A stretch of 64,000 bases of DNA from an uncultured Wenzhouxiangella sp. (lineage in GTDB: Bacteria; Pseudomonadota; Gammaproteobacteria; Xanthomonadales; Wenzhouxiangellaceae), in the NCBI GenBank assembly GCA_964461845.1, contig CAYWVH010000001.1, forward strand, positions 183,487-247,486, given 5' to 3'. The stretch's first letter is position 1. Every line of letters starts with the position of its first letter. The notes beneath the pieces were generated by a model, which saw only the letters and a list, made by a program, of their open reading frames with translations, did no database searches and was not told the DNA's origin. Shown in pieces: positions 25,921 through 40,425 of the stretch. The position numbers were made by a program, and so were the translations under genes.

Positions 25921-26041
25921 AGCAAGCTACTCCAAAACAGTCCAGAGGGCTATTATAGCGAGGCAACGGGCCAGGGTGTAGGGTCCCCGACATTTGTGAT
26001 TATGGATTAAAATGGGGGCTGTTTTAATCGGGGCAAAACCT

Positions 26042-27205
26042 ATGCGAGCGCTGGATGCTTTAGACCTTTTTGATATTACCGCCGAGCTGACTGAAGAAGA
26101 ACGCATGATCCAACAGGCGGTGGGTCGATTTGTCGATGAGAAAGCCCTGCCACTGATCCCAAAATGCTTCGACGAGGGGCGTTTTCCGGCCGAGTTAATC
26201 CCTGAGATTGCTGAGCTTGGGCTGTTGGGTTCCAGCCTAGAAGGCTATGGTTGCGCGGGTCTCAATGCGGTGAGCTATGGCTTGATCTGCCAGGAGCTGG
26301 AACGTGGAGATTCTGGTCTTCGAAGCTTTGTCTCGGTCCAGTCGTCTTTGTGCATGTATCCAATCCATGCTTTTGGGTCAGACGAGCAGAAAGCCATGTG
26401 GTTGCCCCGCATGGCGGCAGGCGAGGTCATCGGCTGTTTTGGATTAACTGAACCCCATGGTGGCTCTGATCCGGCCAACATGAAAACACACGCCAAGCGG
26501 GATGGGTCTGATTGGATCTTAAATGGCGCTAAGATGTGGATCACCAATGGGGGCATTGCCGATATCGCCATCGTCTGGGCCATGACGGAGGAGGGGATTC
26601 AGGGGTTTATTGTAGAGCGAGGATTTGCTGGCTTTGAGACACGTGATATCCACGCCAAGATGTCCCTTCGTGCCTCAGTCACGTCAGAGCTATATTTTGA
26701 TAATGTGCGCATCCCAGATTCGCATCGCCTGCCCAATGTGATTGGCTTGAAAGGCCCGCTGTCGTGTTTATCTCAAGCACGCTATGGGATCACCTGGGGC
26801 CCCATCGGCGCGGCACAGGCTTGCTTGAAAGAGGCCCTAGCGTACGCGGCAGATCGTGAGCTTTTCAAAAGACCGTTGTCCGCCAACCAAGCCGTGCAGA
26901 TCAGGCTTGCTGACATGGCTCGCCGCATCACAACCGCGCAACTGCTGTCACTGCGTCTGGGTCGCTTGAAAGACGCCGGTTCAGTGCACCCCACCCAAAT
27001 TTCCTTGGCCAAGTGGAACAACGTCAGAATGGCCCTAGACATTGCCAGAGATTGTCGGGACTTGCTCGGCGGCTCAGGCATTACGCTGGAATACGCGGCC
27101 ATTCGACACTTGCTTAATCTTGAGTCTGTGATCACCTACGAGGGTACCGAGACAGTGCATCAGCTTGTCGTGGGTCGTGAGCTCACGGGCATCAATGCGT
27201 TCTAA
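26042..27205 (+). CDS. gcdH: Glutaryl-CoA dehydrogenase-like acyl-CoA dehydrogenase
   Basis: ELERGDSGLRSFVSVQSSL, GCFGLTEP, GAKMWITN, ITYEGT; start ATG 26042. Confidence 0.82.
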   Translation: MRALDALDLFDITAELTEEERMIQQAVGRFVDEKALPLIPKCFDEGRFPAELIPEIAELGLLGSSLEGYGCAGLNAVSYGLICQELERGDSGLRSFVSVQSSLCMYPIHAFGSDEQKAMWLPRMAAGEVIGCFGLTEPHGGSDPANMKTHAKRDGSDWILNGAKMWITNGGIADIAIVWAMTEEGIQGFIVERGFAGFETRDIHAKMSLRASVTSELYFDNVRIPDSHRLPNVIGLKGPLSCLSQARYGITWGPIGAAQACLKEALAYAADRELFKRPLSANQAVQIRLADMARRITTAQLLSLRLGRLKDAGSVHPTQISLAKWNNVRMALDIARDCRDLLGGSGITLEYAAIRHLLNLESVITYEGTETVHQLVVGRELTGINAF

Positions 27206-27226
27206 ATTGTCTTAAGAGACCGATTT

Positions 27227-29440
27227 ATGAGCGCTCGGATTAACCGTGCACCGCTGATTGACCAGCGTTTTATCGACTTTGTTGAGCGCCTTGATCCTAC
27301 ATCAATAAACACATCTTTGGGGCAGTCCGATCTGACGGATAAAGATCTGTTGGAATTGTTCGAGAGCCAAATGGTCTCGCGTCAACTTGATCTGATGGCG
27401 AGAATTAAGCGCCAAGAGAATAAGGTCTTTTACACCATAGGCTCGTCGGGCCACGAGGGGAATGCCTTGCTTGGGCGCGTGACTCGGGCAACAGACCCAG
27501 CCTTCTTGCACTACCGCTCCGGTGCGTTTATGGCGGAGCGCTATCGAAAAGCGCCCAATCTCAACTTCATTGATGACACGTGTCTATCTTTTGCTGCTTC
27601 AAGCCAAGAGCCGGCCTCAGGTGGCCGCCACAAAGTCTGGGGCCATCCAGACCTTTGGGTGCTTCCGCAAACTTCAACCATCGCATCGCATCTGCCAAAG
27701 GCTTTGGGCACAGCGCTGGCCATCGAGTCGGCCAAGGCCTCTGGTCAACATTTGCCAGTGCCAGCTGATTCCATTGTGGTTTGTAGCTTTGGGGATGCCA
27801 GCCTGAACCATGCCACGGCACAAACCACACTCAACGCTTTGGCATGGACCCGCCACCAGAACTTAAAAGCGCCTTTGGTGTTGGTGTGCGAAGACAACGG
27901 TTGGGGCATCTCTGTGCCCACACCCAGCGATTGGGTTCAGCGGAGCATTGAGGCACGCTATGGCATTGAGTATGTTCGGGTGAATGGACTCGATATCGCC
28001 TCGGGTTATACAGCCGTGGCTGAAGCCATTGGCCGAGTCAGGTCACGTCGAGCCGCGGTGTTTATCCATTTGGATACCGTTCGTTTGATGGGCCACGCTG
28101 GGACTGACTTTGAGATCGAGTATCGCGCTGAGGCCGAATTGTTGGCGTCTGAGGGCAAAGACCCCTTAATGGTCAGTGCCCTGCATGTGATCGGGAGAGG
28201 GCTGATGCCCAAAGAGGCCGTGGTGGCTCGGTATCGGTCCCTGGGTGAGCACATACTGGCAAGAGCGGATTGGGCGGATCAGCAACCTAAGCTGTCATCT
28301 GTGGCGAGCATCATGGCCCCACTGGCCCCATGCTCGCCCTCAGAGGTGGTCATCGAGGCGGGCCGTGCGCCTGCCGTCGCAGGGGCGCAAGATCTGAGTG
28401 AGTCTGGTGCCTCGCCGGAGGCGCAGGGCGCCAAGCACATGGCCGTCTTGATCAACCAAGGCTTAAGAGACATTCTTAAGAAATATCCACAAGCCATTGT
28501 ATTTGGAGAGGATGTTGCCAAAAAGGGGGGTGTGTATACCGTCACCAAAGGTCTGTGGTCCACGTTCGGGCGTCGGCGAGTTTTCAATACGCTGTTGGAT
28601 GAGACCACAATATTGGGCCTGGCCCAGGGCTATGCCACGATGGGGTTTTTGCCCATCCCCGAGATCCAGTATTTGGCTTATTTCCACAATGCCTGTGACC
28701 AGATTCGCGGTGAGGCATGCTCATTGCAGTTCTTTTCCAATGGCCGATTCAAAAACCCGATGGTGATGAGGATTGCTGGTCTGGGGTATCAAAAAGGCTT
28801 TGGTGGCCATTTTCATAACGACAATTCGATCACGGCTTTGAGAGACATCCCTGGTTTGGTCATCGGTGTGCCCTCGCGCGGGGACGATGCGGTGATGATG
28901 CTTCGGACCATGACGGCTCTTGCAGCGGTGGATGGTCGGGTGTGTGCGTTTATTGAGCCCATCGCCCTTTACATGACCAAAGACCTCTATGAGACCGATG
29001 ATCGTCAATGGTGCTTTCAGTATCCAGCCGCTGAGCAATGTCTGACCCCGTTTGAGCCTCGCCAATACGGTGAGGGTGAGTGTGATTTGCTGATCATTAC
29101 CTATGGCAACGCGGTCCCCATGGCGCTGCGTATCCAACGCCGCCTAAAGTCTCAAGGCAAGAGGATTAACGTATTGGATCTGCGGTGGCTCAAGCCCCTG
29201 CCACTGGAGGCCATAGAGCGGCTTGCCAGAGACGCTCGGGCGGTATTGGCGGTGGATGAGGGGAGGCCAGGCGGTTGTGCCGCTGAGACGGTTTTGGCTC
29301 ATTTGGCTCAGCATCAAGTAGGGTTAAAGGTCGGGCTGGTGACGGCCCAAGATAGTTATATCCCCTTGGCTCAGGCGGCGGAGCTTGTGATGGTCAGTGA
29401 GTCTGACATCGATCAAGCCGCTCAGGCGCTGCTGGAATGA
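27227..29440 (+). CDS. Fused E1 alpha/beta ThDP-dependent 2-oxoacid dehydrogenase
   Basis: ThDP motif FGDAS...EDNG, RLMGHAGTD; beta part GEDVAKKGGVY, LDETTILG, PEIQYLAY, GGHFHND, LDLRWL. Confidence 0.88.
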   Translation: MSARINRAPLIDQRFIDFVERLDPTSINTSLGQSDLTDKDLLELFESQMVSRQLDLMARIKRQENKVFYTIGSSGHEGNALLGRVTRATDPAFLHYRSGAFMAERYRKAPNLNFIDDTCLSFAASSQEPASGGRHKVWGHPDLWVLPQTSTIASHLPKALGTALAIESAKASGQHLPVPADSIVVCSFGDASLNHATAQTTLNALAWTRHQNLKAPLVLVCEDNGWGISVPTPSDWVQRSIEARYGIEYVRVNGLDIASGYTAVAEAIGRVRSRRAAVFIHLDTVRLMGHAGTDFEIEYRAEAELLASEGKDPLMVSALHVIGRGLMPKEAVVARYRSLGEHILARADWADQQPKLSSVASIMAPLAPCSPSEVVIEAGRAPAVAGAQDLSESGASPEAQGAKHMAVLINQGLRDILKKYPQAIVFGEDVAKKGGVYTVTKGLWSTFGRRRVFNTLLDETTILGLAQGYATMGFLPIPEIQYLAYFHNACDQIRGEACSLQFFSNGRFKNPMVMRIAGLGYQKGFGGHFHNDNSITALRDIPGLVIGVPSRGDDAVMMLRTMTALAAVDGRVCAFIEPIALYMTKDLYETDDRQWCFQYPAAEQCLTPFEPRQYGEGECDLLIITYGNAVPMALRIQRRLKSQGKRINVLDLRWLKPLPLEAIERLARDARAVLAVDEGRPGGCAAETVLAHLAQHQVGLKVGLVTAQDSYIPLAQAAELVMVSESDIDQAAQALLE

Positions 29441-37026: not shown

Positions 37027-38487
37027 TCATTCACAGCGGTAAGCGGAAGAATCGAACCGTCGGGTGAGTCTTTTGAACCGAATCGTGGTGTAGGGCCACA
37101 GCGTGGTATTCCGACCGCTGATGGGATGTAAGTACCAGCTGCTGCATCCGCCCGCGTTCCACACTGAATTTTCTAGCGTCTTGTCTAAAAACTCACTCCA
37201 AGCAGTTTGTGCCGGCTCTGTAAGCTCCACACTTCGCCAACCTCGTTGTCTCATGGTTGAGAGGGCATCGATGATGTAATGGATCTGGCCTTCGATCATC
37301 AGCAGTACAGAGTTATGACCTAAGGCAGTATTCGGGCCCATCAGCATAAAAAAGTTGGGAAACCCGGAGACGGTGCTGCCCTTGTAGGCTTCGGGTCCTT
37401 CGTGCCATTGCTCTGCGAGGTCTTGGCCCTGCTTTCCATAGATCATGCCTGCAGGAATCGGTGAGGTGGCCTCAAACCCTGTCCCTAAAATCAGAACATC
37501 GGCCCGATATCGAACGCCGTCTCGGTCTCGCAACCCGTCTTGTTCAATCGCCTCTATGGGTACGGTGATCAGATTGACATGTGTTTGGTTAAAGATCGGG
37601 TAGTAGTCATTGGACATCAGTACCCGTTTGCATCCCATCTGATAACGAGGCGTCAATTGCTCAACCAATTTGGGATCATGAACTTGAGAGTGCAAGTGGC
37701 GCAATGCTTTGCGCCGATGAAAGAAAGATAGGTTAGGCCACCTTGTAAAGGCGGGTAGCCGAGTCTCGAGTAACAGAAACAGCCCCAAACGGGTGAGGTA
37801 GCGCAAGGGTGGAAAATAGCGATAGGCTTTTCTCAGTCCCTCGGGAATGGGGCGGTCTGGCTTGGGCAGAACCCAATTCGGTGTTCGCTGAAAGACCGTG
37901 AGTGATTTGGCCTGACGGGCCACGTGGGGCAGAAACTGAATCGCGGAAGCGCCCGTGCCGATCACAGCGACACGCTGGCCAGTTAGGTCCAGGTCCTCTG
38001 GCCAGGCTTGGGAATGAACCATCCTGCCTTGAAACGACTCCAGGCCATCAATGTTCGGTTTCGCCGGCTTTGCTAGGCCACCAACGGCACCAATCAATAC
38101 TTGGCAAGTGAACTGGTCCCCTATTGACGTGGTGAGTGACCACTGCTTCTGCTGATCGTCCCAACGGGCCTCGGTGACGCGCGTATTCAACAAGATATGA
38201 TCGGTGAGTTTTTTATCATCAACAACACGCTCGAGATGAGCCTGAATCTCCTCTCGACTTGGGAAGTGCCGTGTCCAATCCGGATTCGGTGCAAAAGAAA
38301 GTGAATATAGGTGGGACTGCACATCGCACGCACACCCTGGATATCGATTGACCCACCAGGTGCCACCCACACCAGCCTCGGCATCAAGGATCAAAAAATC
38401 GTCCCGACCTTTGTCCTTGAGTTTTAGGCCAAGGCCGATCCCTGCAAACCCAGCACCGATAATGATGATGGGCTTTTGAGTGCTCAC
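37027..38487 (-). CDS. Class B flavoprotein monooxygenase (Baeyer-Villiger type I fingerprint)
   Basis: [26 protein letters not shown] (FxGxxxHxxxWP), [13 protein letters not shown]. Confidence 0.9.
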
Positions 38488-39683
38488 ACCACGCCCAAGC
38501 GCCGACCCACGCGCGTAAAGGCATCAACGGCTTTTTCTAGGTGAGACTGCGTGTGAGCTGCTGAGATTTGAGTGCGGATTCGCGCCTCATTTTTGGGAAC
38601 CACGGGATAGAAGAAGCCAATCACATAAATCCCTTCTTTCAAAAGCTCGCTGGCCATGGACTGAGCCAGTTTCGCATCATAGAGCATGACGGGAACGATC
38701 GGGTGCTCGCCTGGTTTGACATCAAACCCAGCCTCTACCATGGCCCGTCTGAAAAATTGGGTGTTTTTCATCAGCTGTTGGCGTCGCTCATCGGATTGCT
38801 GGATCAGATCAAATGCTGCTTGAGAGGCCGCCACCAATGCAGGGGCAAGAGAGTTAGAGAATAAATAAGGTCGCGAGCGCTGCCGTAAAAGATCAACGAC
38901 CGTCTGCGATGCAGCGGTGAATCCACCCATTCCACCCCCCATGGCTTTGCCCAGTGTGGAAGTGACAATGTCGATTTTATCCATCACGCCATGGTGTTCG
39001 CCAGAGCCCTTTCCGTGTGGGCCTAAGAAGCCGGTGGCGTGGCAATCGTCCACCATGACCAAGGCATCGTATTTTTCAGCCAGTGCGGTGATGTCGCTCA
39101 AGGGTGCAATCGTCCCATCCATAGAGAAAACACCATCTGTGGCGATGAGGCGCGTGCGTTTGCTTTTTGTTTTTTTTAGGCAGTCTTCGAGCGCATTCAT
39201 ATCAGCGTTCGCGTACCGATGCCGTTCTGCCTTGCACAGCCGAATGCCATCGATGATGGATGCGTGGTTGAGCTGGTCAGAAATGATGGCATCGGCCTCA
39301 TCGAGGAGCGGTTCAAACAAACCGCCGTTGGCATCAAAGCAGGCCGCATACAGAATGCTGTCCTCTTGGCCAAGGAATTGGGCAATGGTTTGTTCGAGTG
39401 TTCTGTGGGGTGTTTGTGTGCCGCAAATGAAGCGAACGGAGGCAAGCCCGAAACCATAATCATCCAATGCTTGCTTTGCGGCATCAATCAGGGCGGGGTG
39501 ATCGGCGAGGCCTAGGTAGTTGTTTGCACAGAAATTCAGTACAGAGCCACCATCTTCAGTCTCTATTTCAATGCGCTGTGGCGTGGTGATGAGGCGCTCT
39601 TTTTTGTAGAGCCCATCTTGCTTGATTTGTTCTAGCGTATCTTCCCAATGCGCATGAGCTTGTTTAGCGACTTTGTGTGTCAT
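38484..39683 (-). CDS. kbl: Glycine C-acetyltransferase (2-amino-3-ketobutyrate CoA ligase)
   Basis: [56 protein letters not shown]; GAGG SD 6 nt before ATG 39683. Confidence 0.95.
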
Positions 39684-40425
39684 CGTCATCCTCTAAGAAG
39701 GCATCGTAATCGGGGAGGGTGGCGTCTTCGCCATGGAGCTGAAACTGCCTTCTTTGCAACCAACCATCCCGCACTAAAGCATACTCATCAAAAGCCTCTG
39801 CTAGGGTGGCATCGAATGGGAGTAGGCCTGCGCGCATTTGAACAACATCCAAAGCCGTCACACCCGAGCCTGCTCTTGCTCGCAGTTCTTGATCCACGGG
39901 ATCTACGACCATCTTTGCCACTTGACCGATACCGTCTCGAACTGTGGCAGGCCCCAGCAGCGGTAACATCAAAAATCTTGACTCCTCCCAGCCCCAAACA
40001 GCCAGTGTTTGTCCCAAGTCAGTGTCGTGTTCTGGCAGATTGTTATGATCAGCAACATCAAAAAAACCACCGATGCCGTAGACCGTGTTAATTAAAAATC
40101 GCCCAAATTGTTCGGAACTGTGCTTGAATCTTCCCTGCAGTAACAGTTGGCTTGAAACCCAAGGTGAGCTCAGGTTGGTGAAAAAATTGCTGATGCCTTG
40201 TTGTGCCAAAGATGGTGTGACTTCGTCATACACGATCGCAACAGGGCGGAGTACGATCTCATCGGCCTTCTTGTTGAAAGCATAAATCGAGCGGTTCATG
40301 TCCTCCCACGGATCCTGATCCACGGGTGCGGTCAGCTCTTTGGGGTTGGCTGCGCATCCGATCAATGCGATGGTGGCTAGGCCAATGGCAAAAATTTTCA
40401 CTAAACGAGCGGGTGTGTGCTTCAT
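39664..40425 (-). CDS. mlaA: Phospholipid-binding lipoprotein MlaA/VacJ
   Basis: Lipobox [51 protein letters not shown]. Confidence 0.93.

Follow-up and report, generated by a model that had tools for sequence, protein, structure and literature searches.

Which gene product converts 2-oxoadipate to glutaryl-coenzyme A (glutaryl-CoA) in bacteria? Lysine and tryptophan catabolism meet at this step, which animals carry out with DHTKD1; in bacteria it is usually credited to a side activity of 2-oxoglutarate dehydrogenase. A literature search found no gene assigned to the bacterial step. The question is raised by a gene pair from an uncultured Wenzhouxiangella sp. (contig CAYWVH010000001.1), located in a stretch of 64,000 nucleotides that is called the window here. 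In the window, gcdH, the gene for a decarboxylating glutaryl-CoA dehydrogenase, lies directly upstream of a gene for a 2-oxoacid dehydrogenase E1 component, dependent on thiamine diphosphate (ThDP), in which the alpha and beta subunits are fused into one chain (the fused E1). The window is part of contig C1 of a genome of 1.77 Mb (43 contigs, 90.7% complete) that is related to Wenzhouxiangella and other Lysobacterales. We propose, with a probability of roughly 0.65, that the fused E1 is a 2-oxoadipate-specific E1 feeding GcdH in lysine catabolism. A sequence-only reading of the window had suggested that the fused E1 makes glutaryl-CoA from 2-oxoadipate; the suggestion has gained a conserved gene linkage and a genome-wide co-occurrence, and it is from these two that we infer the substrate.

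The pairing of gcdH with the fused E1 is conserved beyond synteny and is not due to chance. At the genus level, gcdH was directly upstream of E1 in 20 of 21 loci, the other locus stopping at a contig edge. A 12-sequence alignment search for E1 loci returned Lysobacterales only, and here gcdH was found upstream of E1, on the same strand, in 59 of the 80 species loci. It was missing from just seven loci that had the full 10 kb upstream, four of them from Stenotrophomonas. In the relatives, the GcdH orthologues adjoining E1 were 50-87% identical to that of the window. In an even, family-level sample of 300 Gammaproteobacteria, 25 genomes belonging to over 20 families carried E1. Twenty sampled loci lay outside the window's order, and in 12 of these gcdH was directly adjacent, either as gcdH-E1 (four loci) or as E1-gcdH (eight loci). 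Clustering of the open reading frames (ORFs) within about 10 kb of these loci gave gcdH as the sole recurrent functional neighbour; flagellar genes came next, in 4-5 loci.

A second phylum was sampled around the genome of locus L132. E1 was present in 14 of 201 genomes, and gcdH abutted it in 9 of the 14 loci, with divergent transcription in eight. In a quick maximum-likelihood tree of E1, in which row L096 (a wrongly picked ORF) was disregarded, the three arrangements (gcdH-E1, E1-gcdH and divergent) mapped to three E1 clades, the window gene falling into the gcdH-E1 clade. The linkage thus goes back to about three independent events, either of origin or of retention. The sequence-only reading had staked its case on a conserved link to gcdH, and such a link was found, in three gene orders and two phyla.

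Co-occurrence across genomes, proposed with that reading as a check, pointed the same way. A gcdH orthologue was present in 23 of the 25 gammaproteobacterial genomes with E1, versus 65 of the 275 without it. Of the two E1 genomes lacking gcdH, one is a fragmented assembly, and in the other a contig end cuts the gene off. All 13 tested genomes in which gcdH does not adjoin E1, Stenotrophomonas included, carry gcdH elsewhere. The piperideine-6-carboxylate (P6C) dehydrogenase family showed a similar distribution, with 22 of 25 genomes with E1 versus 44 of 275 without (the unpublished genome G078 is among the 44; the result is unaffected). P6C dehydrogenase makes 2-aminoadipate, the direct precursor of 2-oxoadipate. 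Its gene adjoins a saccharopine-dehydrogenase-like gene in 12 genomes with E1. In one gammaproteobacterium, the E1, gcdH, saccharopine-dehydrogenase-like and P6C dehydrogenase genes lie within 19 kb on one contig (G128:C21:7986-26558).

The window's own genome encodes an L-piperideine-6-carboxylate / aminoadipate-semialdehyde dehydrogenase (C4:43902-45443; NF050084, 774 bits versus a cut-off of 730), one of three aldehyde dehydrogenases in all. A saccharopine pathway was considered for this genome and rejected. No Sacchrp_dh_C domain was found in it, LAT stayed below its cut-off, Sacchrp_dh_NADP matches were weak, and the AlaDh_PNT_N matches were alanine dehydrogenase and PntA. Tryptophan as the main feed of 2-oxoadipate was likewise rejected, with 3-hydroxyanthranilate dioxygenase not found in the genome. 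This enzyme was found in one of seven genomes of the genus and in all eight other Lysobacterales tested; the tryptophan route is unlikely here because the enzyme is missing from most of the genus. A tryptophan 2,3-dioxygenase gene (TIGR03036, 368 bits, just below the cut-off of 390.7) lies outside the window, divergent from the E1-alpha/E1-beta/E2 cluster of the same genome (G000:C4:66298-70528, locus L215), and no further kynurenine-pathway gene adjoins it.

The fused E1, our candidate 2-oxoadipate E1, is encoded at 27227-29440 on the plus strand, as are all parts of the gene pair described below, and has 737 residues. Three Pfam domains scored above their cut-offs in the one chain: E1_dh (74.6 bits), Transket_pyr (65.3 bits) and Transketolase_C (60.1 bits). 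An E1-alpha-like half (residues about 1-356; 27227-28294), recognised by alignment with human branched-chain 2-oxoacid dehydrogenase (BCKDH) E1-alpha (1DTW_A), is followed by a low-complexity linker rich in Ala, Pro, Ser and Glu (residues about 357-405; 28295-28441). The E1-beta-like half (residues about 406-737; 28442-29440) has a free C-terminus, like E1-beta. The sequence-only reading had described a single-chain E1 with a GDA-type ThDP motif, and the domains and alignments bear this out: the ThDP/Mg motif G189-D190-A191...E222-D223-N224 (27791-27898) aligned with GEG...NN of human BCKDH E1-alpha.

Further active-site positions could be assigned. His290 (28094-28096), a predicted catalytic residue, aligned with alpha-His291 of 1DTW_A. 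In the beta half, the presumptive ThDP-activating Glu459 (28601-28603) and the second putative catalytic histidine, His530 (28814-28816), aligned with beta-Glu59 and beta-His128 of Geobacillus stearothermophilus pyruvate dehydrogenase (PDH) E1-beta (1W85_B). A291 aligned with the phospho-serine 292, and Y96-R97 with the YR pair, of 1DTW_A. H290, E459, H530 and the ThDP motif were invariant in an alignment of family members down to 40% identity. By these alignments, the active site is intact. In the BCKDH and PDH E1s, the counterparts of His290 and His530 are needed for the reductive acylation of lipoamide, and the retention of both histidines argues for a lipoyl-dependent enzyme.

An AlphaFold2 model of the fused E1 had a pLDDT of 84.6 and a pTM of 0.88. 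Low-confidence parts were the linker between the halves (pLDDT below 50 at residues 385-399) and the short loops 133-135 and 522-529, which we take to be active-site loops in the model. Foldseek matched the beta half to 1W85_B and 1UM9_B with TM scores of 0.90-0.92 at 29% identity, and the whole chain resembled SucA, DHTKD1 and transketolase at the fold level only (12-14% identity). The solved relatives found by sequence were PDH/BCKDH E1-beta chains (E 3e-35) and BCKDH E1-alpha (E 1e-15); SucA was not matched. Every curated NCBIfam equivalog model scored far below its cut-off, the best with 103 versus 321 and 85 versus 411 bits. From its sequence, the protein is best described as an alpha/beta-class E1 with fused subunits that falls outside both the BCKDH and the PDH families. 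Its family is large, with more than 8000 close sequences among the matches listed and 636 representatives at 50% clustering (E <1e-30).

The longest ORF of gcdH (26012-27205) encodes 397 residues, starting at an upstream ATG. The ATG at 26042, giving 387 residues and a gene of 26042-27205, is the likelier start, because the alignments of relatives begin at about residue 9-13. The protein has three ACAD Pfam domains. Nine of its ten best solved matches are named glutaryl-CoA dehydrogenase (E 3e-143 to 5e-113), and the remaining one is the unassigned acyl-CoA dehydrogenase 4W9U. E values were about 1e-142 against 3SWO, 2EBA and 3SF6 and 5e-117 against human GCDH. The Arg of the GLRS motif (R104, or R94 counted from M11; 26321-26323) and the Glu of the YEGT motif (E377; 27140-27142), both already seen in the sequence-only reading, aligned with their counterparts in human GCDH (1SIQ, 1SIR). 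There, the Arg binds the free carboxylate of the substrate and the Glu is catalytic. As judged by these matches, the protein is a glutaryl-CoA dehydrogenase. The stop of gcdH (27205) is separated from the E1 start codon (27227) by a spacer of 21 nt (27206-27226), the length reported earlier, with a Shine-Dalgarno-like AAGAGA stretch. A scan of this interval for promoter-like and terminator-like sites found no strong one, and co-transcription of the two genes is probable.

In the mechanism that we propose, gcdH and E1 would constitute an operon that serves the final specific steps in the breakdown of lysine via 2-aminoadipate. The fused E1 would bind ThDP, decarboxylate 2-oxoadipate and transfer the resulting glutaryl group onto the lipoyl arm of an E2 whose gene lies at another place in the genome. 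This E2 and Lpd would release glutaryl-CoA and NADH. GcdH, together with the electron-transferring flavoprotein, would then oxidise and decarboxylate glutaryl-CoA to crotonyl-CoA. The beta and alpha genes of the electron-transferring flavoprotein, the electron acceptor of GcdH, were found in the window's own genome at G000:C1:39121-40298.

No E2 or E3 gene was found near the gene pair in the window, as the sequence-only reading had said. Upstream of gcdH lie two minus-strand cytochrome c genes; downstream, E1 is followed by a YfcH/TIGR01777 oxidoreductase gene and the ccm operon. An E2 gene within 5 kb of the fused E1 was found in none of 114 related loci. The window's own genome has four E1s (AceE, SucA, an alpha + beta pair and the fused E1) versus three E2s. 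The latter are in the clusters sucA-sucB-lpd, aceE-aceF-lpd and E1-alpha/E1-beta/E2, and each has one lipoyl and a subunit-binding domain. Their genes lie at C1:293797-294987 (SucB), C5:45275-46603 (AceF) and C4:66298-67494 (the third E2). All E1s but the fused one sit beside their own E2. By this comparison, the fused E1 most likely uses a resident E2 and E3. Of 24 gammaproteobacterial genomes with the fused E1, 21 have the third, alpha-beta-type E2. As an obligatory partner it is doubtful, because two complete genomes with the fused E1 lack it.

Several observations weigh against 2-oxoadipate as the dedicated substrate, or against the route proposed for it. The literature search gave no publication on the role of the fused E1 family. 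In the window's own genome, which is 90.7% complete, no enzyme was found for the conversion of lysine to P6C, and no 2-aminoadipate transaminase could be named. P6C dehydrogenase and gcdH occur without the fused E1 in 29 sampled genomes, so this E1 is not the only solution. Fisher values overstate the co-occurrence, because related genomes are not independent, and the linkage represents about three independent events, not dozens. Stenotrophomonas retains E1 with gcdH relocated elsewhere in the genome. The two complete genomes without the third E2 count here as well. Finally, a FabD-like acyltransferase gene, which accompanies E1 in other phyla (see below), was absent by tblastn from the window's own genome and was beside E1 in none of 23 gammaproteobacterial loci.

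The functionally closest system is most likely the animal DHTKD1-DLST-DLD complex, of which the fused E1 would, by analogy, be a non-homologous counterpart. Like DHTKD1, the window protein would turn 2-oxoadipate into glutaryl-CoA immediately ahead of GCDH. In both cases there is an extra E1 without an E2 and E3 of its own; in animals, the E2o DLST and the E3 DLD are shared. However, DHTKD1 is a SucA-type single-chain E1, whereas the window protein consists of fused alpha and beta subunits of the heterotetramer type. The two are not family-level homologues (TM scores of 0.66-0.68, 14% identity).

The alpha2beta2 E1s (1W85 PDH, Thermus thermophilus 1UM9 E1b and human 1DTW BCKDH) have the same domains and ThDP motif as the window protein, the same alpha-His, beta-Glu and beta-His residues, and a beta half of the same fold. 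They differ in that the window E1 has its subunits fused by a linker of about 50 residues, is 29% identical to beta chains with a weak alpha match (E 1e-15), and has gcdH, rather than E2 or branched-chain genes, as its linked neighbour. An alternative bacterial fate of 2-oxoadipate is offered by HglS (DUF1338) of Pseudomonas putida, which converts it to D-2-hydroxyglutarate (PMC7286885, bioRxiv 10.1101/450254). The HglS route differs in its chemistry, with no CoA ester formed, and HglS was not found in the window's own genome.

Of the other explanations, the one that survives best leaves the E1 in the same route from lysine to glutaryl-CoA and changes its chemistry; we consider it unlikely. 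The E1 would either catalyse an E2-free, non-oxidative decarboxylation of 2-oxoadipate to glutarate semialdehyde or use another 2-oxo acid derived from lysine (for example 6-acetamido-2-oxohexanoate or 6-amino-2-oxohexanoate). The 114 loci without an E2 within 5 kb of E1 are consistent with this. So is a RimJ/RimL-type GNAT gene that lies between gcdH and E1, often directly upstream of E1, in 53 of the 80 Lysobacterales loci (L048-L127; e.g. L055:6129-6686, L086:8883-9902), accompanied by a GST gene in 32 of these. Some of the GNAT genes are less than 60 nt from the E1 start, and the enzyme would fit an N-acetyl-lysine route. However, no close relative of either the GNAT or the GST lies at the corresponding locus of the window genome, and the GNAT is absent from that genome as well as from the other E1 clades. 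The invariant histidines match those serving lipoyl acylation in other E1s. The semialdehyde route would need an extra aldehyde dehydrogenase, of which the genome has three in total, plus a CoA-transferase. The presence of P6C dehydrogenase speaks for 2-aminoadipate and, by extension, for 2-oxoadipate.

A different possibility, which we judge rather improbable for the window, is that the E1 is independent of a classical E2 core. A non-E2 transferase would off-load the acyl group, and an unrecognised protein would do so here. Its basis is the FabD-like acyltransferase gene (about 340 residues), which directly follows E1 in 12 of the 14 second-phylum loci and also in three additional contigs of metagenomic or genomic origin (L128, L129, L217). 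The stop of E1 and the start of this gene often overlap. The protein carries the motifs PGRGSY, GNSMGWY and HxxFHTPL and matched Acyl_transf_1 below threshold (21.7 bits). Two E2s only were found in 10 of the 14 genomes with this gene, a comparison that is confounded by phylogeny. Against the idea stand the tblastn result, with no such gene in the window's own genome or beside E1 in the 23 gammaproteobacterial loci, and the presence of the third E2 in most gammaproteobacterial E1 genomes. The oxidation of the ThDP-bound intermediate without lipoamide would also be left unexplained.

E1, the FabD-like gene and a usually divergent upstream gcdH make up a three-gene unit in L128, L129, L132, L196-L209 and L217. 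These modules of other phyla share with the window locus the E1 family (40-49% identity) and the association with gcdH. They differ in having the acyltransferase directly 3' of E1 and gcdH usually divergent, whereas the gammaproteobacterial loci examined are without the acyltransferase. The acyl-transfer step in the window's organism may thus not be a simple loan of an E2, and the E1 family as a whole leaves room for a less conventional one. A wider evolutionary scenario, which we put forward only tentatively and regard as doubtful, is that 2-oxoadipate dehydrogenase evolved independently a second time, as this family, which would extend over several bacterial phyla and perhaps some eukaryotes. 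At first the family would have been paired not with a lipoyl E2 core but with the FabD-like serine acyltransferase, off-loading the glutaryl group. Two gammaproteobacterial clades, the window's included, would have lost this partner and been re-wired to a resident E2.

The databases offer another view, that the protein is a fused branched-chain (or pyruvate/acetoin) 2-oxoacid dehydrogenase E1, with the position of gcdH irrelevant to its substrate. Relatives are named '2-oxoisovalerate dehydrogenase E1 component', '3-methyl-2-oxobutanoate dehydrogenase', 'transketolase C-terminal domain-containing protein' and 'MFS transporter', and the nearest solved alpha chain is that of BCKDH. But the names are automatic, as the last of them illustrates, and the scores are far under all equivalog cut-offs. 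Besides this protein, the genome encodes a distinct E1-alpha/E1-beta/E2 cluster. No branched-chain catabolic gene is recurrent near E1, whereas gcdH is. A branched-chain, pyruvate or acetoin substrate is therefore quite improbable.

That the adjacency of gcdH and E1 is inherited synteny without functional coupling, as might be argued from the Lysobacterales region, which is syntenic throughout (ThiF, TatD, glycine-zipper protein, gcdH, GNAT, GST, E1, sdh) and has unrelated genes between gcdH and E1, is very improbable, given three arrangements in three deep clades while the other neighbours all change, and given that E1 co-occurs genome-wide with gcdH and P6C dehydrogenase even when unlinked.

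If the fused E1 is the dedicated 2-oxoadipate enzyme that we propose, thousands of genes now called 'branched-chain dehydrogenase E1', 'transketolase domain protein' or 'MFS transporter' would be misannotated, and predictions of lysine catabolism would change for many marine and soil bacteria. Two unrelated E1 lineages would have converged on one substrate and on one habit, that of having no E2 of their own. This raises the question of how E2 recruitment by an alpha-beta-type E1 would work where the main complexes of the genome are homodimeric in type.

A few further observations were made in the window and in related loci. At 37027-39689 of the window, on the minus strand, the glycine C-acetyltransferase gene kbl (TIGR01822, 658 bits) and a flavin monooxygenase gene overlap; the genes scanned near kbl did not include one for threonine dehydrogenase. 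The four Stenotrophomonas loci (L080, L094, L112, L122) have kept the GNAT-GST-E1 block, with gcdH elsewhere in the genome at 72-73% identity, and three of the four have sucAB-lpd 7-10 kb downstream on the opposite strand. The label 'MFS transporter' on several NCBI members of the E1 family is a clear annotation error that has been propagated. A 767-residue family member of 37% identity (L219:7001-9304) lies between genes with mitochondrial-carrier domains, neighbours that suggest a eukaryotic host.

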